This document shows positions 1,335 through 15,383 of a stretch of DNA of 40,199 bases, piece by piece. Every line of letters starts with the position of its first letter. Position 1 is the stretch's first letter. The DNA comes from a virus (taxonomy: Duplodnaviria; Caudoviricetes). The DNA lies in IMG/VR virus record IMGVR_UViG_3300032272_000036, positions 1 through 40,199 of that record. One strand, written 5' to 3'. The translations under genes were made by a program, and so were the position numbers. The notes below the pieces were generated by a model that was given only the letters and a program-made list of their open reading frames with translations, did not search any database and was not told the origin of the DNA.

Positions 1335-2035
1335 TAGGCTGGATCAAAGTCCATAGAGAATTACAAAACCACTGGGTGTTTGAAAATCCAGAACATCTGA
1401 AGGCATGGTTGACTATCATCATGGAGGTAAATCATACCGACCATAAAGTTGCGATAGGTGGAAAGCTATTCGAGTGCAAACGTGGTGAAAGTTTAAAGTC
1501 ATTGGACACATGGGCAAGGCTATTTGGTAAGTCGTGGAACAAATCGAAGGTTAGAAGGTTTTTCAAACTTCTCGAAACTGATTCAATGTTAGTCACTAAA
1601 AACGAATCAAAAACGACACGGCTAACAGTATGTAATTACTGCAAATACCAGTCAGAGCGAAACGCAGATGAAACGCAAGTGAAACGCACACGAAACGGAA
1701 GTGAAACGCAAGTGACACCAAACAACAATGATAAGAAGGTTAAGAATGAGAATAATGATAAGAAAGAAGCTGCAAAGCGTGTGATTGACCACCTAAACGA
1801 AAAAACATCCAAGAGATTTAAAAAAGTAGAAACAAATCTTTCACTGATTGTTTCAAGGATGGCAGAGGGATTTTCTGAGGACGACTGTATAGTGGCAATT
1901 AATAATCAAGTCGTTGCATGGGGGAATGATGAAAAGATGTCTGCTTTTCTCAGGCCACAAACATTGTTCTGTAAAAGCAAAATCGATGGGTATGTAAATA
2001 ACGAGCCTAAAAAAACTGGAGGGTCAAGGTTTTGA
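1331..2035 (+). CDS. phage replication initiator (lambda O/DnaD-like N-terminus, Phg_2220_C-like C-terminus)
   Basis: GWIKVHR N-terminal motif, LTVCNYCKYQ, C-terminal VIDHLNEKT...LRPQTLF..SKIDGYVN; GTG start overlaps the upstream stop; helicase lies directly downstream. Confidence 0.85.
   Translation: MIGWIKVHRELQNHWVFENPEHLKAWLTIIMEVNHTDHKVAIGGKLFECKRGESLKSLDTWARLFGKSWNKSKVRRFFKLLETDSMLVTKNESKTTRLTVCNYCKYQSERNADETQVKRTRNGSETQVTPNNNDKKVKNENNDKKEAAKRVIDHLNEKTSKRFKKVETNLSLIVSRMAEGFSEDDCIVAINNQVVAWGNDEKMSAFLRPQTLFCKSKIDGYVNNEPKKTGGSRF
1659..1713 (+). repeat. iteron array, probable replication origin
   Basis: five tandem 11-mers GAAACGCAGAT/GAAACGCAAGT/GAAACGCACAC/GAAACGGAAGT/GAAACGCAAGT inside the initiator gene, followed by an A-rich tract. 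Confidence 0.8.
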
Positions 2036-3252
2036 AAGAAACAGAACAAGCATTAATAGGGGCAATGATCGGAGACCCAAGCTGTATTCCTTCTGTTATT
2101 GGAATAGTAAAAGCTTCTGACATGGAGACAGAGAAAGGATATTTTGCGTTTGAAGCAATAGAAGAGCTTTTTCGTGAAGGGGCTGCAATTGATCCGGTAA
2201 CTGTTGGTACTAGTCCTGGAGTTGATTTTCTTTACGTCACATCATCGACAAGTATAGGGTTCTGGACTAGCGCAACACAGTATGCAGTAGAGATTGCAAC
2301 TGCATCAAAAATAAGAAGGATGAAAGACGGTTTAAACAACCTGATATCATGCAAGAAGGCAGAAGATATTTTGCGCGGGATAACTGATATCTACAACAAT
2401 GAGTCTGGAGGGAAAGGAAAGGAGCCTGAAATAGTAGATGTCATTGGCCGTTTTGACGCTCACGTAAAAGCCAACATTGCCCGCGGGTCGACTGGACTTG
2501 CTACCGGAATACAACGACTAGATAACTCAATGATTTATTACGTTAGCGGGCAAATTTGGGCTTTAGGCGGGTACACATCGACAGGTAAAACTGCCATGAT
2601 GGTGCAGATGATTGTTAACTTGTTCATGGCAAACAAAAAAGCAAGGGTTTGTGTCATTGCCACAGAGATGACAGAAGAACAAATGGTGGCAAGGATTTTG
2701 GGTAACATGACAGGTATTTATTCACAGAGGATTCTTGCCGGTGACGTGTGGCCAACAGACCAGGAAAAGTATTCAAAAGCATATAGTCAATTAAAATCGT
2801 GGAACCTTAAAATACACGATGATATAAATGAGCTTGCTGATATTGAATCTACAGCAAGAAGTCATGCAATGCGCGGGGGAATCGATGTCTGTTTTATTGA
2901 TTATGTTCAGAATTGCCATGTAAAAGGAATTGACAACTCGTACATGGAGCAGAAAACACTTGCTACAAACATTCAGCAGCTTGCGAAGACAACGAATTCG
3001 ACTATGGTGTGTTTAAGCCAAGTGAGCAACGCAGTAGGCCGTGGTGATGTCGGAACGTTTGAGTTGAAGGGCGCTGGTGAGTGGGCTGCTGTAGCAGATG
3101 TGGGAATGATGTTGAAACGTGGTAAAATTGATGAAAGAGAGTTATTGCTTGATGTTCCAAAAAATCGCCACGGAGTAAAGCCAAGTGTCATTTTTAAGTT
3201 CAGCAAGAACTACTCAAACATGGTTGAGATACCAGAGGACTCACCAATATAG
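2032..3252 (+). CDS. dnaB: replicative DNA helicase, DnaB-like
   Basis: Walker A GGYTSTGKT, ATEMTEEQM, FIDYVQ, LSQVS, KNRHG. Confidence 0.9.
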   Translation: MKETEQALIGAMIGDPSCIPSVIGIVKASDMETEKGYFAFEAIEELFREGAAIDPVTVGTSPGVDFLYVTSSTSIGFWTSATQYAVEIATASKIRRMKDGLNNLISCKKAEDILRGITDIYNNESGGKGKEPEIVDVIGRFDAHVKANIARGSTGLATGIQRLDNSMIYYVSGQIWALGGYTSTGKTAMMVQMIVNLFMANKKARVCVIATEMTEEQMVARILGNMTGIYSQRILAGDVWPTDQEKYSKAYSQLKSWNLKIHDDINELADIESTARSHAMRGGIDVCFIDYVQNCHVKGIDNSYMEQKTLATNIQQLAKTTNSTMVCLSQVSNAVGRGDVGTFELKGAGEWAAVADVGMMLKRGKIDERELLLDVPKNRHGVKPSVIFKFSKNYSNMVEIPEDSPI

Positions 3253-3287
3253 GCAAAAGCAAAGCATATTGAGCGTTTAATCAAGGA

Positions 3288-3401
3288 AAAGAACAAGTTT
3301 TCAGGTAGGATGGCTGGTTGCAGCGAATTTTTATGTGAGGAAATTATTATGGCAAAAATAGAATGTGTTGCAAAAAATACGATGAAACGTGTTGTTAACT
3401 C
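3288..3401 (-). repeat. degenerate attC-like site (array 1, site 0)
   Basis: GTTAACTC(3394-3401) is the exact complement of GAGTTAAC(3597-3604) at the gene end; AAC at 3292; arms decayed. Confidence 0.45.
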
Positions 3402-3603
3402 AAGTAAAAAACAAATGACATTTCCGTGGGCTGTTTTTTTGGTTGTTGTTATGACAATAGCATACGCCTACCATTGCGAAACTGGCGACAAACTAAGCGG
3501 ATTTTTCATTTATTTCTGCGCAGTTGTTGGATGTCTTTGTGTGTGGTCGATAGACACAAAAAATTATTATTACGTTAAGTACTTAAAAAGTAAAGAGAGT
3601 TAA
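3349..3603 (+). CDS. small membrane protein, cassette cargo
   Basis: GAGG RBS at 3337; two hydrophobic segments; stop TAA overlaps the TAAC core. Confidence 0.65.
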   Translation: MAKIECVAKNTMKRVVNSSKKQMTFPWAVFLVVVMTIAYAYHCETGDKLSGFFIYFCAVVGCLCVWSIDTKNYYYVKYLKSKES

Positions 3604-3662
3604 CGCTGAGGCAACTGGTTGCGTGGCAGTTTCAGTAATCCATGTTTAGAGTTTTATTATAC
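3598..3662 (-). repeat. attC-like site (array 1, site 1)
   Basis: + strand AGTTAAC GCTGAG GCAACTGG...T CCATGTTTAGA GTTTT ATTATAC. Confidence 0.7.
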
Positions 3663-3681
3663 ATTTTTGGAGGTAAAAAAC

Positions 3682-3924
3682 GTGTGCGAATGCGAAGAAA
3701 AAGACTGTGAATACAAAGAAGGTAAATTATACTGGCACGAAGCTCTTGATAGAGCCCATGTTGCTTGTGACCACTTTTACGAGTATGTGCAACAGCATAT
3801 AGCGGTGCAGCATGACGAGGCACTTGAAGAAGCTGCAACGGCTGTCACTGATGCTATGCGGGATTTTTATCAACTTGTTGGCCGCAAATCATACGATTTT
3901 GACCAAAGGGACGGAGAAGTATAA
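3682..3924 (+). CDS. hypothetical protein, cassette cargo
   Basis: GGAGG RBS at 3669 and GTG start; HEALDR motif; stop lies in TAAC. Confidence 0.7.
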   Translation: MCECEEKDCEYKEGKLYWHEALDRAHVACDHFYEYVQQHIAVQHDEALEEAATAVTDAMRDFYQLVGRKSYDFDQRDGEV

Positions 3925-4117
3925 CGCTGAGCTCAATTGCCCCAAGTGGCTTAAGGAGAAGTACGATGGCAATATGTGAACACAAAAGCAAATGTGAAAA
4001 TTATACAAGCGAATGTAATAGGCTGGCCCACCCTTTTATGAACGCAAAGAAAGGGTGCTTGGAATTACCAAGCAAAAAACCGCTGACCTTGGGGTCGATT
4101 GAAGCGCATTGTTCTAT
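3919..4117 (-). repeat. long attC-like site (array 1, site 2, 199 bp)
   Basis: GTATAAC GCTGA GCTCAATTG CCCAAG...CTTGGG G T CGATTGAAGC GCATT GTTCTAT; loop contains the RBS and ATG of the next gene. Confidence 0.75.
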
Positions 4118-4280
4118 TGATTGGGCTCTTTTTACGGATAAGCGCCCAGAGATAGGAGAGTGGATATTAGCATACACTAAAGGCAGAACACCACAGACAT
4201 CTTTCCACACGATTAAATATTATAAAGGTGACGAAACTCAATATACCCACTGGGCTTCATTGGAAGCGCCAAATCAATAG
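3966..4280 (+). CDS. DUF551-like domain protein, cassette cargo
   Basis: C-terminal W...DKRPE.G.WIL...THWASLEAP pattern; AAGGAG RBS. Confidence 0.65.
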   Translation: MAICEHKSKCENYTSECNRLAHPFMNAKKGCLELPSKKPLTLGSIEAHCSIDWALFTDKRPEIGEWILAYTKGRTPQTSFHTIKYYKGDETQYTHWASLEAPNQ

Positions 4281-4331
4281 AACGCTTGGATAAATGGCGA
4301 GGAACGAGTCCAATTAATTATTTTGTTGGTT
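4277..4331 (-). repeat. attC-like site (array 1, site 3, 55 bp)
   Basis: ATAGAAC GCTTGG ATAAATGG CGAGGAACGAG T CCAATTAAT TATTTT GTTGGTT. Confidence 0.8.
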
Positions 4332-4350
4332 TACGACAAGGAGCGAGAAA

Positions 4351-4554
4351 ATGACTGATACAGAAAGAGTTAAGAAGGCAATAGACTTCGCAGTAGAATG
4401 GGGAGGGGTAGACGGGGAGCACCATAAGGATTGGTGTATTGACCAAATGGTAAGGATTTTAGCAGGCGATGAATATGACAATGTCGTGAAGGACGCGTGC
4501 GCAGGAGAAGACGGACCTGATACGTTTGGCTGGGATTGTGGAATAGCGCCATAG
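4351..4554 (+). CDS. hypothetical phage protein, cassette cargo
   Basis: AAGGAG RBS; GGVDGEHHKDWCIDQMVRIL...WDCGIAP resembles a common small phage family. Confidence 0.75.
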   Translation: MTDTERVKKAIDFAVEWGGVDGEHHKDWCIDQMVRILAGDEYDNVVKDACAGEDGPDTFGWDCGIAP

Positions 4555-4556
4555 TA

Positions 4557-4688
4557 AACCAACGGTTGAATTAACTGGTTTGCGGACTTAGCGCAACCAA
4601 GGAGAATATAGCAATGAGTTATGAAAACAGTAACCAAGTTCCAGGAACCGACGCTGCCCGCAAATCCACGTTGAATGATTTGTTATAT
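4557..4688 (-). repeat. attC-like site (array 1, site 4, 132 bp)
   Basis: AACCAAC GGTTGA ATTAACTGG TTTGCGG...CCGCAAA T CCACGTTGAAT GATTT GTTATAT; extrahelical T and G on the + strand. Confidence 0.85.
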
Positions 4689-5054
4689 GTTTATTCTGGG
4701 AGGTGTAGGCAGTGTGAGGTAGGGCTGCCAACTGGTTTAAAAGATGACGCTGGAAACAGATTAAGAACCGGCGATATTGTAATGAGCTATACCGTTGACT
4801 CTTTTGGGGTGGCGAATTTCGATGGGCTGACGGTCGTGATAGCTGACCAGTGGCAGACATATAGCGACGGGAGTCATGTGTTACAGGAAGATAAGGCCAC
4901 CCCTTTTGTGATGGGGATAAAAAATGTGGATTTAGAGCTAGAGACAGGGGTTTACCCCGATCACGTATGGCGGGTGCGAAGATTGAAGGCATACGAAGAC
5001 GTTGTTGATGGTGAACACTGGAAAGATTTTGGCTTCAGTTTCAAGTCCATATAA
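4614..5054 (+). CDS. hypothetical protein (YopX-like TGLKD..G..L..GDIV segment), cassette cargo
   Basis: AAGGAG RBS inside the attC loop; stop lies in TAAC. Confidence 0.7.
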   Translation: MSYENSNQVPGTDAARKSTLNDLLYVYSGRCRQCEVGLPTGLKDDAGNRLRTGDIVMSYTVDSFGVANFDGLTVVIADQWQTYSDGSHVLQEDKATPFVMGIKNVDLELETGVYPDHVWRVRRLKAYEDVVDGEHWKDFGFSFKSI

Positions 5055-5181
5055 CGTTTTAAATCACGGGATTTTTGCAATTAAATCACAAAACGAGGAA
5101 CGAAGAAATGACCGATGATAACACAATAGACGAAGAACGAAGCCAGGACTGCAAAAATTCCGGTGAATTGCCTTGTTATAC
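5049..5181 (-). repeat. attC-like site (array 1, site 5, 133 bp)
   Basis: ATATAAC GTTTTA AATCACGGGA TTTTTGCA...TGCAAAAA TTCCGGTGAATT GCCTT GTTATAC. Confidence 0.8.
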
Positions 5182-5455
5182 ACGATGCAAGGTAAAAGCG
5201 TTGAATGTTTCCAGTGATATGGTTCTCGTTGATTATTCTGTCAGCCACAACAATGGGACAACCACAGTTGAGCAGTCTATGAGATTGGTAAAAGAGCGCG
5301 GAAAGTGGAAAGCAGAAATTCAATTATTTGATTTTCCAGAACAGGATACACCAGATCGTGCGGCAACTAAACTTTCTGAATGGCTAGGTAGATTGAGCTT
5401 GGCGATAGCTGGTGGGGAGTGCTCCAATATCTACCTGGATGATCTTGGCGTATAA
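5108..5455 (+). CDS. hypothetical protein, cassette cargo
   Basis: GAGGA RBS and ATG inside the attC loop; stop lies in TAAC. Confidence 0.7.
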   Translation: MTDDNTIDEERSQDCKNSGELPCYTRCKVKALNVSSDMVLVDYSVSHNNGTTTVEQSMRLVKERGKWKAEIQLFDFPEQDTPDRAATKLSEWLGRLSLAIAGGECSNIYLDDLGV

Positions 5456-5472
5456 CAGTGTTAATAAGTGGA
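5452..5472 (-). repeat. array-terminal attI-like site, copy 1
   Basis: ATAACAGTGTTAATAAGTGGA; near-identical to 9170-9190 and 12417-12437. Confidence 0.65.
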
Positions 5473-5541
5473 CAACTTTTCCACGCTTAACTTGGTTTTT
5501 TAGTTGATAAGTGGAAAATACAAAATAACAAAGGGCATAAA

Positions 5542-6141
5542 ATGACTTTCCAGACGAAGATATTTGTAGATGGAGATGACGGAGAAAAGTTATCATGTGC
5601 TGAAGCTGCTGCAATTTTAAGTGGCGAAGGTAAAAAGACGACAGCAAAACAAATACGCAACCATATTGCAGGGAAAAATATTACGACGATCGACGGATTG
5701 CGTAATCATAGAGAAAAAGTTGAGAGAAAACTAAAGTCATTTAAGCCAAAGCCACCGATAAGGGGAGACGATGGAAAAGTTATCAGTAACGCTGATGTTG
5801 TTAACACCCTAAAAGTAGAGGGGTATACCGCGTATGAGCAAAAGGTGAGCTATTACCGTGATCGTCATGGCGCTAAATCGCTCAACGATCTGAGACGGTT
5901 ATTTGGCGAGAATGTAAGAGTTGATAGTCCTCGTGGGATATTGTCTGGAGAGTTTGTAAAAATTGAAGATAAGATTTACAAAGTTGCAGAGGTCTTTGCC
6001 AACGGAGCCGGCCGACCTGATTTAATGTGCAACCCGGTAATGACCAATGGACAAGTTTTGACACGTACAACGAGATATATTAGCGGCACTGAAAAATGGC
6101 GTAAACTGAAGTATGACCCAAAGGTTTTTATTAAAAAGTAA
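5542..6141 (+). CDS. hypothetical basic protein, possibly DNA-binding with an internal repeat
   Basis: 199-aa K/R-rich ORF; two GDDG-led segments. Confidence 0.65.
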   Translation: MTFQTKIFVDGDDGEKLSCAEAAAILSGEGKKTTAKQIRNHIAGKNITTIDGLRNHREKVERKLKSFKPKPPIRGDDGKVISNADVVNTLKVEGYTAYEQKVSYYRDRHGAKSLNDLRRLFGENVRVDSPRGILSGEFVKIEDKIYKVAEVFANGAGRPDLMCNPVMTNGQVLTRTTRYISGTEKWRKLKYDPKVFIKK

Positions 6142-6159
6142 AAAAATGTGTTTTTACTG

Positions 6160-6188
6160 TTGACTTATATGTCCAATGGGTATATATT
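6160..6188 (+). promoter_or_regulatory. sigma70 promoter with overlapping imperfect palindrome (operator candidate)
   Basis: TTGACT(6160-6165)-17 bp-TATATT(6183-6188); TATATGTCCA-A-TGGGTATATA spans the spacer. Confidence 0.65.
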
Positions 6189-6245
6189 GTAGGTAAAGGA
6201 TGAGGCAATAAAGCCTTAAGCGACAAAGACAACAGGGAGAACATT

Positions 6246-6464
6246 ATGAAAGCTACAATTAACCCAGGAGCAGAATTTGATTGGACTGGAAAAACATGGG
6301 AAGAATTAGCAGTTGCCTACGGGATGGACGAGAAATCAATGAGAGAAGAAGCTATTGAGTTCCAGAATTGCGAAGGGTTTGACGACGAAGGTAATGAATC
6401 AGATGATTTACACGAGTGGTTGACTAATGAAAATGCCGCATTTGTAGACAATACACCTTTTTAA
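6246..6464 (+). CDS. small acidic hypothetical protein
   Basis: GGGAG RBS; 72 aa, very D/E-rich. Confidence 0.7.
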   Translation: MKATINPGAEFDWTGKTWEELAVAYGMDEKSMREEAIEFQNCEGFDDEGNESDDLHEWLTNENAAFVDNTPF

Positions 6465-6512
6465 CATAACCAACGGGGCTTGGAAACAGGCCCCACAACA
6501 AGGAGAGAGACG

Positions 6513-6704
6513 ATGAAACTTTATATTTTTAACAGAGAAACAATGAAAGTTATTGCTACAGTCGAAGGAGACAGGAACATTGACTGTGAGAGAATAGCAG
6601 AGGAAAACGGATCTTGTCCGGACGAGACAGTAGGCTGGACATACTCTCCTGGGTTTGGGTTTGAAGGTGGACTTGAGGAAAATGACAAAGTCGTAGAGCT
6701 TTGA
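6513..6704 (+). CDS. small acidic hypothetical protein
   Basis: AGGAGAG RBS, ATG at 6513; preceded by hairpin GGGGC...GCCCC (6475-6494). Confidence 0.65.
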   Translation: MKLYIFNRETMKVIATVEGDRNIDCERIAEENGSCPDETVGWTYSPGFGFEGGLEENDKVVEL

Positions 6705-6705
6705 A

Positions 6706-6903
6706 ATGAAAAATTTAACGATTGCAGAATTAAGAGGCAAAACAGGACTCACTCAGAAGGAATTCGGGAAACTGCTAGGCATGACACAGCCAGCAGTTAA
6801 CCGGATCGAGTCCGGTAGGCGCACTGAGACTAAAGGGCACCTCGCAACCTTGGCTGCGCTTGATCTTATTATCGAGAAAGGGATGCTCGATTTGTTGTTG
6901 TAA
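6706..6903 (+). CDS. XRE/Cro-family HTH regulator
   Basis: LRGKTGLTQKEFGKLLGMTQPAVNRIESGRR. Confidence 0.9.
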   Translation: MKNLTIAELRGKTGLTQKEFGKLLGMTQPAVNRIESGRRTETKGHLATLAALDLIIEKGMLDLLL

Positions 6904-6942
6904 AAAAATATAACGCCGTTTTAATAACGAGGAAAGATTATT

Positions 6943-7104
6943 ATGAAAAAGTATGAGAGCGTAAGGATGGCCGTTTTAATCCAGTTGATGTCAGAAATCA
7001 CCGGAAGCCAAGAAGGTGTGATTCTGGAGGCATTACAAGGCCATTGTATTGACGAAGAAGACGCTGGTGCTATTAAGAGAGAACTTGACGAAATCCAAGA
7101 GTGA
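6943..7104 (+). CDS. hypothetical protein (53 aa, MKKYESVRMAVLIQLM...)
   Basis: GAGG RBS; below the ORF-track cutoff. Confidence 0.5.
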   Translation: MKKYESVRMAVLIQLMSEITGSQEGVILEALQGHCIDEEDAGAIKRELDEIQE

Positions 7105-7226
7105 TATCTGGCAACCAAACGGCAATCTCACCAGTGCCGCCACCGGATGAGTAAAAATAACGCCAGCGTTCCAATAATCCGGTGCAACGACTGATCAAAA
7201 CAGCAACCAAGGAGGAAATATACACC

Positions 7227-7321
7227 TTGCAAAAACATGAGCGATAGAGTATAAAGTAATAGTCGCTTCATCTCCCTCCTAAACCCCATTGCCACCTGTG
7301 ATTCTCGGCAATGGGGTTTTT
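7227..7321 (+). ncRNA. candidate small RNA (promoter, anti-SD-like segment, intrinsic terminator)
   Basis: TTGCAA(7227)-17 bp-TATAAA(7250); CTCCCTCCT; 13-bp perfect stem 7281-7293/7307-7319 plus Ts. Confidence 0.4.
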
Positions 7322-7407
7322 CTCGTTTTGACCAAAAAATACATAGAATGCCAATTATTTTGTCAATTACATTGTAAATCTAAATATAATGTGTTATTTT
7401 ATATATT

Positions 7408-7587
7408 ATGAAAGAAGAAATTAAGCCAAGTAAATATTGTAAGCAGCAAGGTTTCAAAACTCTAACTGAATGTTCTAGAGTAGTGGACGTTAAAGTCCCA
7501 ACGCTTAGGAATTGGAGCAAATACCACCCTGTTCGTTTTAGGGCTGTTGTGGCTGGTGGTGTGTTTATTAAAAATAATAACCAATAA
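7408..7587 (+). CDS. small HTH-like protein (59 aa)
   Basis: PSKYCKQQGFKTLTECSRVVDVKVPTLRNW pattern; below the ORF-track cutoff. Confidence 0.55.
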   Translation: MKEEIKPSKYCKQQGFKTLTECSRVVDVKVPTLRNWSKYHPVRFRAVVAGGVFIKNNNQ

Positions 7588-7788
7588 TCATGGACAAAAG
7601 AATGGAAAAGACAGATCTCCATATGTATTTTTTTTGCTTGCCTTGGGTTTAGTGTGGTGGGTTTACTTGTTCCTGTTTTTAGTGGCGAGCCGTTTTTAGC
7701 CGCGGCGTTTGTAATTGCTGCGCTAATAGACAATGAAAAATAATTAGGGTTTGTTTTCAGGGTGAAGGATCGTGGTGAGGAGGGTGTT

Positions 7789-8109
7789 ATGAAAAGAGAA
7801 GTGAGAATTATTGTTTTTGAAGATGATGATATTGAAGATGATATTCCGACTGCTCCTGCCGAATTTATGGCGTTTTGGCGAGAGAAGATAGACTTAATCC
7901 CCCAGGAATTTATGGACACGGCCAATATAGATCTTGTAGGTGATTCGCGATGGGAGAGCGGATACCTTGAGGCTAGAATCAGCTTTACCAGGCTGGAGAC
8001 TGACGAAGAAGAGGCGGCAAGGTTGAAAAAAGAAGAAGACCGCAGAAAATTTATAGAGAACCAAGAGCTTTGTCAACTTGAAAATCTCAAGGCTAAGTAT
8101 GGGGTCTAA
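7789..8109 (+). CDS. hypothetical protein
   Basis: GAGGAGG RBS; stop lies in the TAAC of a degenerate attC-like site. Confidence 0.7.
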   Translation: MKREVRIIVFEDDDIEDDIPTAPAEFMAFWREKIDLIPQEFMDTANIDLVGDSRWESGYLEARISFTRLETDEEEAARLKKEEDRRKFIENQELCQLENLKAKYGV

Positions 8110-8192
8110 CCCAATAATAATCCGTGGCCCTCAATGTATATTCCAGTAGGGTCATTGACGTTCTAGCCATCCAGGTAATTTTGTTGTTAGCT
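8104..8192 (-). repeat. degenerate attC-like site
   Basis: GTCTAAC CCAATA ATAATCCG TGGC...GCCA T CCAGGTAATT TTGTT GTTAGCT; same layout, weak L-box pairing. Confidence 0.4.
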
Positions 8193-8306
8193 GAATATAT
8201 AAACAATATTATGCTATTGGAAAAATGATTATGAAAAAAGAAGAAGTTTTAAAAACTTGTGCAAAAGTAGTTATTGCTGGTGTCACAACCGTAAGAAGGC
8301 ATAAAA

Positions 8307-8900
8307 ATGACAAAGGATAAGAAGAAGAAGCCTGATTGGGAAGCGATATGGTGTGATTATCGTGCTGGTGTTTTGTCAGTAAGGGAAGTAGCAAGAGTCC
8401 ACAGTGTAGACGCTTCGTATTTGTTGCGTAAAGCCAATAAGTTAGGTGTTAAAAGAGACCTTACTAAAAGGGTAAAAGAGGCGGTAAATACTAAATTAGT
8501 CCACGGATCAGTCCACACTCCAGGGACAAGCGACGATGATATTGTCGAAAAGGAGAGCTCTAGAGTTGTTGATGTTGTCATGTTGCATAGAAAGGATATT
8601 CAGGATACACGGGAAGCAGTCAGGATATTGAGGGATCAGCTTATTGAGTCCACGCTGAACATTACTGAGATTGAGGAGGAGATTGTTAAAGAGACTGAAG
8701 ATGATAGAGGGGCAAACCGCAGGAACCAGATGTTGAAGGCAGTCTCATTACTTTCAAGCTCTTCAATTATTGGAAATCTTACTAATGCCATATCAAAGCT
8801 GATTCCCCTTGAGCGTCAGGCACACAACCTGAACGACGAAGAGGATACAGAAAAGAAACGTATTTTTGTTTCTAGGGTGAAGGCTGGGAGTGATGGTTGA
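8307..8900 (+). CDS. terS: terminase small subunit
   Basis: PDWEAI..DYRAG.LSVRE.A HTH, ..RDL.., LIPLERQA; upstream of terL. Confidence 0.8.
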   Translation: MTKDKKKKPDWEAIWCDYRAGVLSVREVARVHSVDASYLLRKANKLGVKRDLTKRVKEAVNTKLVHGSVHTPGTSDDDIVEKESSRVVDVVMLHRKDIQDTREAVRILRDQLIESTLNITEIEEEIVKETEDDRGANRRNQMLKAVSLLSSSSIIGNLTNAISKLIPLERQAHNLNDEEDTEKKRIFVSRVKAGSDG

Positions 8901-8980
8901 CGCCGTTATAAGCTGCCAGCCGACAAACTGACAGCTAAACCCCTGACCTCATTCTGGTCAGCTTTATAAAATTGTTATCT
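8895..8980 (-). repeat. attC-like site (array 2, 86 bp)
   Basis: GGTTGAC GCCGTT ATAAGCTG CCAG...CTGG T CAGCTTTAT AAAATT GTTATCT. Confidence 0.8.
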
Positions 8981-8999
8981 TTAAAATCAAGAGGATATT

Positions 9000-9173
9000 A
9001 TGGAAAAGTTTACAGTTAAACACTACATAGACCATGCTCACCCATCCATAAAAGGTTTTGGTTTTGATGGTCTTGTTGTCGGGGAATACAGGGAAGAGGC
9101 CGAAGAGTTTATTGAATTTATTAATGACATTCTTGATAAGTGCGAAAAGGCAGGGGTTAGCATAGAAAGATAA
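9000..9173 (+). CDS. hypothetical protein (57 aa, MEKFTVKHYIDHAHPSIKGFGFDGL...), cassette cargo between terS and terL
   Basis: GAGG RBS; stop lies in TAAC; below the ORF-track cutoff. Confidence 0.7.
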   Translation: MEKFTVKHYIDHAHPSIKGFGFDGLVVGEYREEAEEFIEFINDILDKCEKAGVSIER

Positions 9174-9190
9174 CAGTGTCAATAAGTGGA
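9170..9190 (-). repeat. array-terminal attI-like site, copy 2
   Basis: ATAACAGTGTCAATAAGTGGA. Confidence 0.65.
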
Positions 9191-9203
9191 AAATAGTATT
9201 TAG

Positions 9204-10478
9204 ATGATGAACAAACCGCAACTGAAATACGACTACGAACTCAAAATATGTGAGGACATGTACAACCCTATCTACCTCCCGTATTTAGACCAGTCAAGGT
9301 CAACAGAGATTTTTTACGGTGGTTCGTCATCAGGAAAATCAAACTTCATTGCACAGCGAACGATTGAGAATATCATGGAAGGCGGTCACAATTACCTGTG
9401 CTGCCGGAAGATGGGGAACTCGATCACCAAATCAGTATTCAACGAACTAACTAAAGCGATTTCGAAACTGAATGTTGGCCATTTATTTAACGCCGTCCCA
9501 TCCCAGGGTCACATAACTTGCGTAAACGGGTATCAAATATTATTTAGCGGCCTTGACGATGTTGAAAAAGTTAAGTCGATCACGCCAAAACTTGGCGTAA
9601 TTACAGACGTTTGGTGTGAAGAAGTGACAGAAATGTCTTACGCGGATATCAAGCAGCTGCGGAAAAGGTTGAGGGGGGTGGCCGTTTATGATGATCGCAG
9701 AATCCAAAAGCGCATAGTTATGACATTTAACCCAATTTACAAGACTCACTGGATCTATAAAGAGTATTTTGTCCCAATTGCCTGGAAGGATAACCAGAAA
9801 GAACACATTGACGAACGTCTTAGTGTTCTCAAGACAACCCACCTCGACAATGAGTTTCTCGATGACGAAGATCACTTGTTACTTGAAGAGGAAGAGGATG
9901 AGTATTGGTATCAAGTTTACACACTTGGAAACTTTGGTATACTTGGTGACGCAATCTTTACCAACTGGCGTACTGCAGATCTTTCAAAAATAAGTAAATC
10001 ATTCGACAGGATCAGAAACGGCCTTGATTTTGGTTATAGCTCTGACCCTAACGCTTACGTGCGGATGCACTACGACAAGCCTCACAAGAGAATATATATC
10101 TTCAAAGCATGGATGGCTAAAAAACTCACAAACCCAATGATTGCCGAAAAGCTCAAGCCTATAATTGGCAAGGAGCCAATCTTTTGCGACTGTGCAGAAC
10201 CAAAATCAATAGCAGAATTGCAAGCCGAAGGAATCGACGCTAGGCCGGTAAAAAAGGGCAAAGATTCAATCATGCACGGGATCAAGTGGTTACAAAAACA
10301 CGAGATCGTAGTTGATGAAGAATTGCAGCCAGTAATTAACGAGCTCAACACGTATCAGTGGAAAAAAGATAAAGACGGGAACGCGCTTCCAATCCCAGTT
10401 GGGGATGATGATTTTATTGACGCGACTAGATACGGAACAGAGATAGAACACACCGGATTCTTTGAGGGACTGGTTTAG
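9204..10478 (+). CDS. terL: terminase large subunit, PBSX family
   Basis: FYGGSSSGKS Walker A, VWCEE Walker B, TFNP, GLDFG, DCAEP, DDFIDATRY. Confidence 0.95.
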   Translation: MMNKPQLKYDYELKICEDMYNPIYLPYLDQSRSTEIFYGGSSSGKSNFIAQRTIENIMEGGHNYLCCRKMGNSITKSVFNELTKAISKLNVGHLFNAVPSQGHITCVNGYQILFSGLDDVEKVKSITPKLGVITDVWCEEVTEMSYADIKQLRKRLRGVAVYDDRRIQKRIVMTFNPIYKTHWIYKEYFVPIAWKDNQKEHIDERLSVLKTTHLDNEFLDDEDHLLLEEEEDEYWYQVYTLGNFGILGDAIFTNWRTADLSKISKSFDRIRNGLDFGYSSDPNAYVRMHYDKPHKRIYIFKAWMAKKLTNPMIAEKLKPIIGKEPIFCDCAEPKSIAELQAEGIDARPVKKGKDSIMHGIKWLQKHEIVVDEELQPVINELNTYQWKKDKDGNALPIPVGDDDFIDATRYGTEIEHTGFFEGLV

Positions 10479-10656
10479 GCCAGTAATGTTTATGTTGTGA
10501 AAGCTAAAATAATAAAGTTTCCAAACAAGAGACAACGAGAGCTGTCACTACTAAAAAAGCAACGATTACTTGATCAACAGTTTGATCTGGTGAATAGGAA
10601 GATTAATATCTCCAGGATCAAACGACGACAATAACCACCTATAAGGAGGGTGAAGT

Positions 10657-10890
10657 ATGTGCCACGAAAGATGTAAAAAGTGTGAGAATGTTGAAAACTG
10701 CATAGTAAAAGATAAAATCAGAAACCCTGGAATGTGTAATTTTTTCCTTCCTGCAGACAGCGAGGATGAACAGGGAGCGAGGGAATTTCTGGTTGATGTA
10801 CTTGATTCTAAATTCAACAACCATATTCTGGTTAAGATGCCGGGTGGTTTGGCTTGTGAGCTTGCAGGTTTTATTCAGAAACTTCAATAA
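10657..10890 (+). CDS. small Cys-rich hypothetical protein
   Basis: AAGGAGG RBS; CxxC-rich N-terminus. Confidence 0.6.
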   Translation: MCHERCKKCENVENCIVKDKIRNPGMCNFFLPADSEDEQGAREFLVDVLDSKFNNHILVKMPGGLACELAGFIQKLQ

Positions 10891-10973
10891 GTAGCGATTG
10901 AATTAAGCGGATGGCTAGTGAAGCCAGCTAAAACAGCAAAGTTTATTCCAGTTCGATTGAATACTGGTTGTGT
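10889..10973 (-). repeat. degenerate attC-like site (array 3, site 1)
   Basis: AGC(for AAC) GATTGA ATTAAGCGG...T TCGATTGAAT ACTG GTTGTGT. Confidence 0.55.
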
Positions 10974-10983
10974 GAGGTTATTT

Positions 10984-11181
10984 ATGTATACGTTAATTTT
11001 ATTTTTTATTGTGTGGCTTGTTTGGTTTTCCGTTGGATGTGCTGTTTTATCCTTCATTGACGATGAAAATAGCAGTTTGTTTAAGTGGGCCTCATCTTGT
11101 CCAATTCCGATTATAGGGTATCCGATGGTTGTAACTATGTGGCCTTTGTTGGCTTGGGCGTGGCTTCATAGGGAAGTCTAA
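10984..11181 (+). CDS. small membrane protein, cassette cargo
   Basis: GAGG RBS; two hydrophobic segments; stop lies in TAAC. Confidence 0.65.
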   Translation: MYTLILFFIVWLVWFSVGCAVLSFIDDENSSLFKWASSCPIPIIGYPMVVTMWPLLAWAWLHREV

Positions 11182-11262
11182 CGATTTAATCAGTGGTCCG
11201 CCACTGACTTGCAGATTTAATAAACTGGGTCTCTTCGTCTCCACTGAATTAACTTGTTGTAA
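11176..11262 (-). repeat. attC-like site (array 3, site 2, 87 bp)
   Basis: GTCTAAC GATT TAATCAGTGG...T CCACTGAATTA ACTT GTTGTAA. Confidence 0.75.
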
Positions 11263-11326
11263 TGTATAAGGATATTATGATTATAGAAAAAAATAAAGAT
11301 CAATATGAAACCAATGAGGTAAAAAA

Positions 11327-11512
11327 ATGGGACATCCGGCGAATGACAAAGCAACTTTAGAAGCTATTTTTAAGGCATTTAACCACGCTAAAGATTCTGG
11401 AGAGGATACTGTAGTGCAGACATGCAAAGGAGATGTAAGATTCAAGCCCGGTTTGACTGGGGTTAAAGTGCAAATAGAAGGTGCCAAAACAGCTAGAAAC
11501 AATTCTAGATAA
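11327..11512 (+). CDS. hypothetical protein, cassette cargo
   Basis: GAGG RBS; stop lies in TAAC. Confidence 0.6.
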   Translation: MGHPANDKATLEAIFKAFNHAKDSGEDTVVQTCKGDVRFKPGLTGVKVQIEGAKTARNNSR

Positions 11513-11564
11513 CGCGCCAATAACTGTCGAGCTTGCGAGTCCATGTTAATTGGACTTATTGGGC
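11507..11564 (-). repeat. attC-like site (array 3, site 3, 58 bp)
   Basis: 37/38 identical to 11951-11988 (ATAACTGkCGAGCTTGCGAGTCCATGTTAATTGGACTT). Confidence 0.85.
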
Positions 11565-11599
11565 GATTTGCCCGGAACCTTAATTTGAAAGGAAATATT

Positions 11600-11902
11600 A
11601 TGAGTGAGAAAGAAATTGAACAAGAGATCCAGGACAAAGGGTTGAACGCTCCAAGACTCCGCCCGGCAGATATCGACACCGTGATCGTTGGTGAGACCTT
11701 CACCACATTACCAAGCGGGAAGGCCATGGTCTGTGAGTTAACCCTTGCCAGTGGTTTTACCGTGCGGGGTGAATCGGCCTGTGTCAGTAAGGCGAATTTT
11801 GATGAGGGCATCGGCCAGAAGATAAGCAGGGAGAACGCACGAAATAAGGTTTGGGAACTCGAAGGCTACCGGTTGCAATGTGATTTGGCCCGTGGAATCT
11901 AA
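11600..11902 (+). CDS. N4 Gp49 / Sf6 gp66 family protein, cassette cargo
   Basis: IEQEIQDKGLNAPRL...GFTVRGESACVS..NFDEGIG...KVWELEGY signature. Confidence 0.85.
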   Translation: MSEKEIEQEIQDKGLNAPRLRPADIDTVIVGETFTTLPSGKAMVCELTLASGFTVRGESACVSKANFDEGIGQKISRENARNKVWELEGYRLQCDLARGI

Positions 11903-11936
11903 TTTTATCGGGCGGCAAGGTTGCAGAACTTTGACC

Positions 11937-11995
11937 GCCCAACGTTTGAGATAACTGGCGAGCTTGCGAGTCCATGTTAATTGGACTTGTTATAT
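11937..11995 (-). repeat. attC-like site (array 3, site 4, 59 bp)
   Basis: - strand reads ATATAAC...GTTGGGC (perfect GTTRRRY). Confidence 0.85.
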
Positions 11996-12016
11996 GCGTT
12001 TTTTACGGAGAACATT

Positions 12017-12208
12017 ATGAAATGGTTAAATTTTATACCTCTTGTTTTGTGGGCAATTGGTTTTTTATGCGCCACGGAATGGTCATTGCATCTTAGGCAA
12101 ATTGACGGGAGGGTGAGTGACCTTAAAACACAATCTGAAGCAGGAGCTAAACTGTGGCTTTATGGTTCAATACTGTTTTTGATTATCGGAATTTTATTGT
12201 CAATATAA
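12017..12208 (+). CDS. small two-TM membrane protein, cassette cargo
   Basis: GGAG RBS; stop lies in TAAC. Confidence 0.7.
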   Translation: MKWLNFIPLVLWAIGFLCATEWSLHLRQIDGRVSDLKTQSEAGAKLWLYGSILFLIIGILLSI

Positions 12209-12260
12209 CGTAGGATGTTCAACGGCGAGCTTGCGAGTCCGCTGTAACTTTTTGTTATCA
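12203..12260 (-). repeat. attC-like site (array 3, site 5, 58 bp)
   Basis: ATATAAC GTAGGAT GTTCAACGG CGAGCTTGCGAG T CCGCTGTAAC TTTTT GTTATCA. Confidence 0.85.
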
Positions 12261-12276
12261 AGCATAGAGGAAGAAG

Positions 12277-12417
12277 ATGATTAAATACTTCAAAGAATTA
12301 TTGACAACGCTGGTTAAGATTGAAAAACATCTGGAAAAGATATCAAAATGTGTAGCTGAAAAACATCATGGTCACGGTGACAGATTTAGTATTTCCACGA
12401 AACATTGGAATGATTGA
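12277..12417 (+). CDS. hypothetical protein (46 aa, MIKYFKELL...), cassette cargo
   Basis: GAGG RBS; below the ORF-track cutoff; ends TGA-TAAC. Confidence 0.6.
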   Translation: MIKYFKELLTTLVKIEKHLEKISKCVAEKHHGHGDRFSISTKHWND

Positions 12418-12437
12418 TAACAGTATCAATAAGTTGA
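12417..12437 (-). repeat. array-terminal attI-like site, copy 3
   Basis: ATAACAGTATCAATAAGTTGA. Confidence 0.65.
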
Positions 12438-12459
12438 AAGTTAATCACGCAATAACACT

Positions 12460-13179
12460 ATGACCCAAAAAATAACAATAGAAAAGCCAGATCACATAGA
12501 AGGAACCGCCGGAGCAAGAAAAGACTGGGCAGTGATAACCGGAAAAGAACTCACACTGAAACCAGCAGTGTTTCTTCACTCAAAAACCGGTGAATATTAT
12601 TGTCACCTCGTGGGCGGCGTGGCATATCCTGTTGCAACTGGGCAAGAGGTAAAGCCTGGAATTTTATTAATAGTTGGCATACAGAACGAACCAACTGTAA
12701 AATTCACCGTTCTCGAATCATATGAGGACAACAATGTTTTTAACCTGATTGAAAGAATGGTAACGTTGCGAAGAGATTACCTTTTTGGAAAAGATTCTCG
12801 TATCCTTCCGAACTGGTACGGCGATCAAGAAAAATATCAGACATTAATACTTAAAGCGTCAGAATCGCTTGAGAAACATAAAGGTAGTGAAGCTGGCCTA
12901 TACATTAAAGACACAGTTGATAGGAGAGAAAAGCACTGTTTCCCTTTGTATGTGCGTCAAATATTTAACGCATTGGAGAAAAAACAATTAGATATTAACG
13001 GTGACCGAATAGTTACCGGAGCACTACAGTCATTTCAACGAGAAGATGCGGAAAAAGGGGCACTTGACAATTTTCCGCTTGTAGGTTTGCTAGGCGGTAT
13101 GGTACACTCATTGCAGGTTGAAAGGCCCTGGCTTGAGGATGCCGATGGTGAGGGTACGGTTTTCAACGTTGAATTTTAA
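12460..13179 (+). CDS. hypothetical protein, possible terminase-nuclease (RNase H)-like fold
   Basis: 239-aa ORF; pattern of three strands, helix, W.GD, terminal helix (inference). Confidence 0.6.
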   Translation: MTQKITIEKPDHIEGTAGARKDWAVITGKELTLKPAVFLHSKTGEYYCHLVGGVAYPVATGQEVKPGILLIVGIQNEPTVKFTVLESYEDNNVFNLIERMVTLRRDYLFGKDSRILPNWYGDQEKYQTLILKASESLEKHKGSEAGLYIKDTVDRREKHCFPLYVRQIFNALEKKQLDINGDRIVTGALQSFQREDAEKGALDNFPLVGLLGGMVHSLQVERPWLEDADGEGTVFNVEF

Positions 13180-13278: not shown

Positions 13279-14475
13279 ATGTCAGTAGATAAATTAGTAG
13301 CAGTAATGTCTGGTAGGTCAACTTATAATGTCAGGGATGAAGACGACATGACATCCGATGACGCATTTGGAGTTCCGACTCAACAGAGCGTAAAGGCTTA
13401 TGCTGATGCCCTAGTGGTAGCAGGTTCGTCATCAACTCAGACACTAACAAATAAGACCTTGGATGATGCAACGTGCAAGTTCGCCGACACGGCAGACACA
13501 ACCAAAGACCTATTTGTAAGTCTTGGCGGAGCTACCACAGCGAAAACCATGACCATCATTTCGAGCCAAACAGACGATAGGTCGCTCACATTGCCTGACG
13601 CGACCGATACTCTGGTAGGTAAGGCAACAACCGATACACTAACCAACAAAACCTTAACAAGCTCAGTGTTGAACGCCGGAGTAAGTGGAACCGCAGTTCT
13701 CGACGAAGATACGATGTCTTCCGACTCTGACACTAAAATTGCCACACAGCAAAGCATCAAAGCCTATGTTGACACTCAGGTTGTAGCACAAAACATTTTC
13801 CTCCGTGGAGAGATAGCTGACATATCCAGCGCCGCAAGCACATGGGTCGTGTCCCCTGTGGCCGGTGACATTACCGGAATTACCACAGTTATTGATGGCG
13901 CTATCACTGTTGGTGACGCCGCTATTACTTTTGAGATTGGTGGTACACCAGTAACAGGCGGTGGAATCACAATTGCGTATTCAGGTTCAGCGGCAGGAAC
14001 CGTTGATTCTGCAACTCCCTCCGCAGCAAACACTGTAACGGCAGGGCAAGTAATCGAGATAATTACAGACGGCGGGTCTACTGACGCAGCAATGGCGGTT
14101 GTCACGCTTGAAATCACCCCGGCAGCAGCGGCCCCGAAGAAAGTTTATGTAACAGGAGAGATTGCAGACGTATCGACAGGTGCTTCCTCATGGGTGACTT
14201 CTCCAATTGCTGGTACAATCTCAAACTGGTGGAGTGTTATTGACGGTGCTATTGCGAGTGTTGACGCTGGGTTAAGCCTTGAGATTGCCACGGTCGCTGT
14301 GACAGGATCAGCTATCACCGTTGCATTCTCAGGGTCAGGTGCAGGAACAGTTGATACAGCTGCTCCAACAGCGGCGAATACTGTAACCGCTGGACAGGCG
14401 ATTGAGGTCATCACAGACGGGGCAAGCACAAACGCTGTTAAAGCTGTTGTCCTCCTGGAAATCACGGCGGCATAA
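13279..14475 (+). CDS. virion structural protein (fibre/decoration-like) with internal duplications
   Basis: two DED.M.SD....TQQS.KAY motifs, TLTNKTL repeats, two tandem ~110-aa Ala/Thr/Gly domains. Confidence 0.75.
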   Translation: MSVDKLVAVMSGRSTYNVRDEDDMTSDDAFGVPTQQSVKAYADALVVAGSSSTQTLTNKTLDDATCKFADTADTTKDLFVSLGGATTAKTMTIISSQTDDRSLTLPDATDTLVGKATTDTLTNKTLTSSVLNAGVSGTAVLDEDTMSSDSDTKIATQQSIKAYVDTQVVAQNIFLRGEIADISSAASTWVVSPVAGDITGITTVIDGAITVGDAAITFEIGGTPVTGGGITIAYSGSAAGTVDSATPSAANTVTAGQVIEIITDGGSTDAAMAVVTLEITPAAAAPKKVYVTGEIADVSTGASSWVTSPIAGTISNWWSVIDGAIASVDAGLSLEIATVAVTGSAITVAFSGSGAGTVDTAAPTAANTVTAGQAIEVITDGASTNAVKAVVLLEITAA

Positions 14476-15365: not shown

Positions 15366-15383
15366 GTGAAAAAAAGGGAAGAC

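Follow-up and report, generated by a model that had tools for sequence, protein, structure and literature searches.

Host-type attI sites and reversed attC cassettes in the operons of a tailed phage

Does a tailed phage that carries integron-like attC sites exchange its small accessory genes by site-specific recombination, and which enzyme would do the work? The question is raised by positions 3288 to 12437 of the viral record IMGVR_UViG_3300032272_000036 (Caudoviricetes; here G000), a linear sequence of 40,199 bases that is estimated to be 73% complete and was analyzed over its whole length (the window). In this region small genes alternate with attC elements, and each run of such cassettes ends at a short motif that is also found at a bacterial integron attachment site, attI. 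The comparison of sequences points, with a probability of roughly two in three, to a phage that carries three shortened copies of a Desulfobacterota attI, at which the integron integrase (IntI) of the host would insert and excise reversed cassettes during infection.

attC elements and attI motifs

The elements were scored with a profile of our own, not the IntegronFinder model, that was trained on 23 bacterial attC sites only (25 were found, and two overlapping or doubtful ones were removed). It recovered nine sites in the window, all on the + strand in the bottom-strand layout, with scores of 21.8–38.3 bits and first core-triplet bases at 3923, 4281, 4561, 5053, 8899, 11180, 11511, 11941, and 12207. 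No further site of at least 20 bits was found on either strand of the whole 40 kb, the best score among 100 shuffles of 3201–12500 was 18.3 bits, and the same profile gave attC sites in 0 of 40 terminase-relative loci (388 kb). A structural scanner found 9 matches on the + strand of 3201–12500 versus 1.1 in 60 shuffles; it also picked the bacterial training sites and was designed after the window elements were known, so this test of the architecture is not fully independent.

The nine sites measure 47–191 nucleotides (nt) from core to core, or 55–199 nt with the 4-nt flanks, which agrees with the range in the first-pass annotation of this DNA. Each has R and L boxes, an unpaired spacer, and extrahelical bottom-strand bases. 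In every clear site 8–9 of the 9 L-box positions pair, and the right arm holds two or three unpaired bases, namely a T at its inner end plus one or two more. Non-standard cores occur at 8899, which begins with GAC (the stop TGA of terS plus C), and at 11511, which ends with ATT; sites 11511 and 11941 are near copies. The bottom-strand layout with extrahelical bases that had been proposed is borne out by the matches to the bacterial-trained profile, by L-box pairing, and by the strand that attI fixes, and each clear site does lie ahead of one small + strand open reading frame (ORF). The original count of about 11 clear elements comes down to nine by the profile, those at 5454, 9172, and 12419 being attI. 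Among the several decayed elements that had been listed, 3602 holds as decayed (10.4 bits), 8108 scores under 6 bits, and the remnants at 6930–7160 are not above background by left-arm score (7118 is equalled or exceeded by 2.4% of background AAC). Two other candidates, 6462 and 10634, were rejected, with TAA|C present and the arms absent. Genes end as TAA|C in 11 of 24 cases in the region versus 4 of 31 outside it (p 0.013).

One 19-nt motif stands at 5454, 9172, and 12419, three copies versus 0.04 expected. Each copy lies directly behind the last cassette gene and ahead of a larger gene, and the three head five (attI-1), one (attI-2, between terS and terL), and four (attI-3) cassettes. A search for an exact 20-letter match across 185,579 species genomes gave 21 loci, 15 of them titled as Desulfobacterota groups. 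At eight of the 21, an intI sequence (query, L063) begins 89–171 nt downstream on the same strand; the TIGR02249 cut-off was passed by two ORFs (L063 and L064; 428 and 408 bits), and one partial ORF reached 246. An opposite-strand ORF begins at the motif in 14 of the 21 loci, and attC sites lie upstream in 10 and downstream in one; eight of those 10 supplied training sites for the profile. This is the layout of an attI read on its bottom strand, which fixes the strand of the window attC sites. On these matches, 5454, 9172, and 12419 were identified as attI. Their reading as decayed attC was rejected, and a reading as dif was rejected by a by-eye comparison with the dif consensus. Behind the attI, no further scoring attC was found in the window or in six other carriers.

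The phage attI copies retain R and L boxes, and attI-1 retains about 70 nt, a form that it has in common with phage contig L098; attI-1 is absent from GenBank phages apart from one 25-nt chance match. In bacteria, the motif occurs in 7 of 401 genomes of its phylum and, being so rare, marks one integron clade. Four of five bacterial genomes checked hold 2–8 attI copies. In G007 and G010, several copies are followed by broken intI fragments, and one intact IntI may serve several platforms in the bacterial host as well. The bacterial attI is itself an imperfect palindrome, an attC-like hairpin (8.8 bits) can be drawn for the long phage attI (window 5454–5505; L098:4001–4070), and the left arm of one attC (L066:1747–1792) differs from the attI core at 1 of 18 bases; in this clade, attI and attC may change into one another or give rise to hybrids.

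Gene polarity was called per cassette from the longest ORF with a ribosome-binding-like site. All nine window cassette genes are bottom-strand genes that read in the direction of attI, eight of them with the stop 0–8 nt before the crossover. The same polarity was found for 13 of 16 cassettes in six other phage contigs (two opposite, one without a call), whereas 16 of 22 bacterial cassettes have the opposite polarity (one the same, five without a call; two long intervals were skipped). The contrast gives a Fisher p of 2e-8 without ties, the cassettes not being independent. A cruder call placed 10 of 10 genes on the same strand in the window, 7 of 12 in the other phages, and 5 of 22 in the bacteria. 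Relative to attI, the attC sites have the orientation usual in integrons; the reversal concerns the genes only.

The relaxed attI motif was found at 39 viral loci, six of them duplicates, with attC within 2.5 kb upstream in 6 of 39 and downstream in none. The six carriers show the motif in different gene contexts, namely helicase, DNA polymerase, terminase, recombination exonuclease, and endonuclease regions. At nine viral loci (L068, L070, L071, L075, L079, L086, L088, L090, and L096), a variant motif lies in one shared context that has no attC sites; it is probably part of an unrelated conserved sequence.

Cassette transfer and the three platforms

Evidence of movement comes from another contig, L066, whose only stretch in common with the window is 12207–12421 (215 nt, 99% identical), with an AAC core at either limit. 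In L066 the cassette has other neighbors and stands one place away from the attI of that contig. The contigs of sequencing run X1 break at both ends of cassette 12209–12420, with other letters before 12207 and after 12421, so that both sets of flanks are present in this run; a metagenome search recovered the second context as L066. Window positions 4412–12240 form a single X1 contig without differences, which makes an assembly chimera unlikely, although X1 may be the source sample; the sole public run containing G000 is labeled sediment metagenome and may be its source. Read depth (8.7 in L066 versus 12.6–14.8) and CpG ratio (0.48 versus 0.76–0.81) suggest that L066 is another phage rather than a further part of the G000 genome. 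L001 and L007 lack both genes that were used to test whether L066 is the missing part of G000. X1 contigs also break at 4412–4439, inside ORF 4351, and another one matches the window up to 11274, just past attC 11180, before it diverges; more cassettes may be shared in this sample.

In relatives, the sites of two platforms are empty. terS overlaps terL in all seven close relatives (TerL 82–87% identical), and terL overlaps a 239-amino-acid (aa) gene in six of them, the seventh having one ORF between and no site. These overlaps indicate that about 0.3 kb has been inserted at the middle platform and about 2.0 kb at the right one, the two platforms that the relatives cover. In the window the shared cassette sits next to attI and the decayed site 3602 far from it, as would be expected if younger cassettes enter at attI. 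The three separate loci proposed at the outset hold, and IntI-type exchange is backed by a shared cassette bounded by AA|C at both ends. No near-identical relative with a different array, which would show reordering within this phage lineage, was found. Searches of viral contigs with DnaB, cassette protein 4351, and the 11511/11941 attC motif gave nothing, and cassette protein 5108 gave one weak match.

All features of the platforms lie on the + strand. Platform 1 follows the core gene of a DnaB-like helicase (2032–3252; PHROG 19, E 3e-59). The decayed attC at 3598–3662 is farthest from attI-1 (6 of 9 L pairs, right core ATT) and heads a probable old cassette, 3604–3924, whose ORF 3682–3924 (80 aa) ends as TAA|C. 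The long loop of attC 3919–4117 (26.7 bits; folding probability, pfold, 0.13) contains the start codon (3966) of the gene in the next cassette, 3925–4282 (ORF 3966–4280, 104 aa). A short attC at 4277–4331 (21.8 bits, pfold 6e-5) precedes cassette 4283–4562 (ORF 4351–4554, 67 aa, weak PHROG 23179). The attC at 4557–4688 (38.3 bits, 9 of 9 pairs) has three unpaired bases (G, C, T); by homolog alignment, its loop and right arm encode the first 24 residues of the next protein, in cassette 4563–5054 (ORF 4614–5054, 146 aa, ending as TAA|C). The last attC, 5049–5181 (37.0 bits), contains the start codon (5108) of the cassette that adjoins attI-1, 5055–5455 (ORF 5108–5455, 115 aa, PHROG 1258/30735). 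attI-1 itself (5453–5525; predicted crossover 5455|5456) is the long form, in which the L-box motif occurs a second time, and lies ahead of ORF 5542–6141.

Three attC arrays had been described; there are indeed three separate loci, but the middle one is a single clear cassette between terS and terL. A possible decayed attC under threshold lies at 8104–8192 (hairpin shape z −0.4). The gene of the terminase small subunit (TerS, 8307–8900; PHROG 1206) ends with the TGA that forms the left junction of the cassette; the protein is 31% identical to TerS of L001, in which TerS abuts TerL. The attC with the GAC core (8895–8980; 27.3 bits, 9 of 9 pairs) is followed by cassette 8901–9173 (ORF 9000–9173, 57 aa) and the short attI-2 (9171–9195; predicted crossover 9173|9174), about 30 nt ahead of the start of the terminase large subunit gene (TerL, 9204–10478; PHROG 3717/2).

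On the right platform, three small ORFs without recognizable attC (10479–11181), possibly decayed old cassettes, belong to the 2-kb insert that is absent from relatives. They are followed by attC 11176–11262 (33.2 bits, pfold 0.15) with cassette 11182–11512 (ORF 11327–11512, 61 aa), attC 11507–11564 (23.8 bits, right core ATT) with cassette 11513–11942, and attC 11937–11995 (36.4 bits, pfold 1e-6; three unpaired bases, A, T, T) with cassette 11943–12208 (ORF 12017–12208, 63 aa). ORF 11600–11902 in the second of these belongs to the N4 Gp49/Sf6 gp66 family (PF13876, E 1e-24), which has matches in 686 phage records. The attC of the cassette shared with L066 (12203–12260; 30.4 bits) precedes cassette 12209–12420 (ORF 12277–12417, 46 aa), which adjoins attI-3 (12418–12440; predicted crossover 12420|12421), a short form with two mismatches ahead of core gene 12460–13179.

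The cargo consists mostly of small phage proteins, to most of which Pfam and PHROG gave no function. Start codons lie within the attC loop for three window cassette genes. Of ten homologs of ORF 4614, five begin at a codon overlapping the right core, the 24 preceding residues being attC-encoded, and two others have different extensions of similar length; a relative in L125 is a plain operon gene without any site. Another homolog (L124:2908–2975 and nearby) ends as TAA|C before a different AAC...GTT hairpin that the profile does not score, possibly another attC family. A cassette of canonical polarity (160 aa, PHROG 1244) stands at the same short attI in a prophage-like contig (L087:3339–4020). 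A 302-aa gene of the radical SAM family (PHROG 9298) is a reversed cassette that starts inside its attC (L041:3701 onward; L089 coordinates 2753–3701).

Elsewhere, the long ORFs of the window are nearly all on the + strand, a P22-like portal is encoded at 15366, and GC skew is positive but too weak to set the direction of replication. At 6160–7104, a promoter-like site (10/12) stands ahead of four small genes that include a helix-turn-helix regulator; a homolog of ORF 6513–6704 sits immediately upstream of an attC array in L042. A 398-aa virion-like ORF (13279–14475) marks a variable slot without attC sites, which has no such insert in L001, L004, and L006 and a different ORF in L003, L005, and L007. 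A polyvalent protein of 2791 aa (31175–39550) has two ART-PolyVal matches (PF18760).

The enzyme and the rival explanations

IntI is reported to join the folded bottom strand of attC to double-stranded attI at AA|C (PMC8946536; bioRxiv 10.1101/2022.09.11.507474). In the proposed mechanism, host IntI would act in trans on phage DNA; the folded + strand of an attC would recombine with the double-stranded attI, and the new cassette would land immediately ahead of the core gene. Each cassette would begin with the C of a core and finish with the TAA stop codon of the gene that it carries, and so insertion would spare the stop of the upstream gene and leave the neighbors intact. The operon promoter would transcribe the inserted cassette, and the integron promoter Pc would not be needed. 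Since the operon is transcribed in the direction of attI, expression would be limited to genes on the bottom strand, and this would select for the reversed polarity. More speculatively, if replication runs along transcription, the bottom strand would be the lagging-strand template, an orientation said to favor excision (PMC5371416). Ordinary phage genes likely turned into cassettes once they were flanked by attC sites.

The enzyme is likely that of the host because no tyrosine recombinase was found in the available 73% of the genome; core phage genes, and not intI, follow all three window attI copies. Non-cognate pairs of attI and IntI are reported to be generally inefficient, attI working best with its own integrase (PMC8946536), which ties the phage attI to its own IntI clade. 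A wider version goes further: unrelated phages of sulfate-reducing and allied Desulfobacterota may each have planted the host attI in their own operons and may share phage-specific reversed cassettes, which the host integrase would move between co-occurring phages, new cassettes arising from ordinary phage genes when attC sites insert at stop (TAA|C) and start codons. We hold this version tentatively, at somewhat less than even odds.

Several observations weigh against the activity of a host integrase at these sites. One cassette transfer was caught, within one sequencing run, and the carrier genomes are incomplete (G000 73%, five others 28–68%), so an integrase of the phage could lie outside them. 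The host is assigned from the attI motif alone, which is rare in its phylum, and for 13 of the 21 bacterial loci the 1.5 kb downstream contains no intI sequence (two of the 13 are likely chance matches, and three have less than 1 kb of sequence there). Likewise, a nearby attC is missing from 33 of the 39 relaxed viral matches, which probably arose by chance or within coding sequence. Only about 20–25 nt remain of two of the three attI copies; however, marine-sediment attI is described as mostly a simple site without direct repeats (PMC3146285), and with simple sites common there, short copies need not be dead. Folding is a further point. The median pfold of the window attC sites is 7e-4, versus 0.21 for 24 bacterial and 0.049 for 16 other phage sites; the range is 1e-6 to 0.15, with eight of nine at 1e-5 or above, which is far under the bacterial sites. 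Minimum-energy folds are mostly not attC-shaped (z −0.07 to −2.4), and Loot et al. reported lower excision for low-pfold sites (PMC5371416). Finally, the GAC junction at terS misfits the GWT consensus of secondary sites, and attI1 is reported to have barely recombined with genome sites (bioRxiv 10.1101/2022.09.11.507474), both of which bear on the route by which attI entered the phage.

Poor folding could also mean that IntI made the sites, but that they are now mostly inert, with attI remnants as passengers and genes moving by homologous recombination between similar arms. The broken cores at 3602, 8899, and 11511 and the short attI copies fit this account, truncated attI sites are known inside the arrays of class 1 and 2 integrons (PMC12901181), and a stretch of about 40 nt common to 11511 and 11941 could give homologous exchange a start. 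We nevertheless regard it as unlikely. The limits of the 99% identical cassette coincide with both cores, and no arm sequence is common to its neighbors across the junctions; the lack of scoring attC behind attI, where the window has core genes and not cassettes, also speaks against passengers, and truncated attI is reported to be functional with IntI1 (PMC12901181). The missing 27% of the record could instead hold an integron integrase of the phage itself, or a Xer-like enzyme, that serves the three attI as a split phage integron. G000 is linear and incomplete, and bacterial genomes do hold several attI copies, some away from an intact intI. Yet no PF00589 match was found in any of the six carrier records (about 250 kb in all), unrelated core genes take the place where bacteria have intI (terL in the window and L043, an endonuclease in L066), and the attI core matches bacterial loci exactly; we consider this arrangement improbable. 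That the elements are terminators, translation-coupling hairpins, or other intergenic repeats of phages with a chance likeness to attC is the least credible account, with very little probability left to it. Three sites do contain start codons, and TAA|C ends occur outside the region as well. Against it stand the specificity of the profile in shuffles and in the 40 relative loci, the attI motif matched beside intI, and the terminator-like sites, which are not in excess (7 versus 7.6 expected) and never at attC positions; no relevant Rfam family matches the elements. The preferred reading remains that host IntI moves these cassettes.

Known systems and meaning

With at least two attC sites within a few kb (four clear ones in 3923–5177 and four in 11180–12256) and no integron integrase in the 40-kb record, the window is, as far as its sequence goes, a cluster of attC sites lacking integron integrases (CALIN). 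The first-pass annotation was not aware of such an organized phage system having been described; phage attC clusters are already published, since Qi et al. 2023 found 17 phage CALINs, and five of six phage attC tested recombined with IntI1 and attI1, the bottom strand better than the top (PMC9892861). These resemble the window as attC clusters in phages without intI. The accessible text of that paper, however, mentions no attI in integrase-less phages, no genes of reversed polarity, and no passage of a cassette between phages; it presents TJE1 as a typical array, unlike the reversed arrays here, and the sole attI-headed CALIN mentioned is that of prophage M16-3, in which a host-type attI heads the cluster and which encodes its own IntI.

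The chromosomal integrons of Desulfobacterota (L060, L063, L064, and related ones) have the same attI core, attC architecture, and strand relative to attI, and, like the phage, several attI copies per genome. They differ in that intI follows attI, the attI is longer, the genes are on the top strand and start at attI, and the cassettes are larger (360–1500 nt versus 212–492 nt in the window). Delta-attI cassettes of class 1 and 2 integrons also have short attI fragments away from intI that are still recombined by IntI1, but there, as described, the fragment takes the place of the attC in a resistance cassette within the array, whereas the phage attI ends the array before a core gene (PMC12901181); terL and the 239-aa gene behind two of the attI sites are conserved core genes, not truncated-attI cassettes. 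IntI is further reported to put attC cassettes at short GWT sites outside integrons, termed attG (bioRxiv 10.1101/2022.09.11.507474). TAA|C fits such a site on the other strand, but attG sites, as that preprint presents them, are unlike attI; each array here closes with a conserved host attI, and the terS junction misfits GWT.

The system would work like an integron but is not a complete one by its anatomy: intI is not beside attI, and the genes are reversed. No published integrase-less phage with a host attI and reversed cassettes was found in a literature search made mostly on titles and abstracts, with few subscription journals. With a well-supported anatomy and one cassette transfer caught, the host-attI, reversed-gene form appears to be a new variant of phage attC clusters.

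Phage accessory genes are usually ascribed to illegitimate or homologous recombination. Here, a predicted host enzyme, a defined docking site, and the one caught transfer indicate site-specific traffic between phages, even at the terS–terL junction. The locus also bears on the origin of cassettes, in that one gene family is plain in an operon (L125) and fused to attC as a cassette in the window. If the wider version holds true, the insertion of attC at stop and start codons would make visible one way in which integron cassettes are born, a question of long standing, and the reversed polarity would put the recombinogenic strand on the coding strand and so raise turnover.

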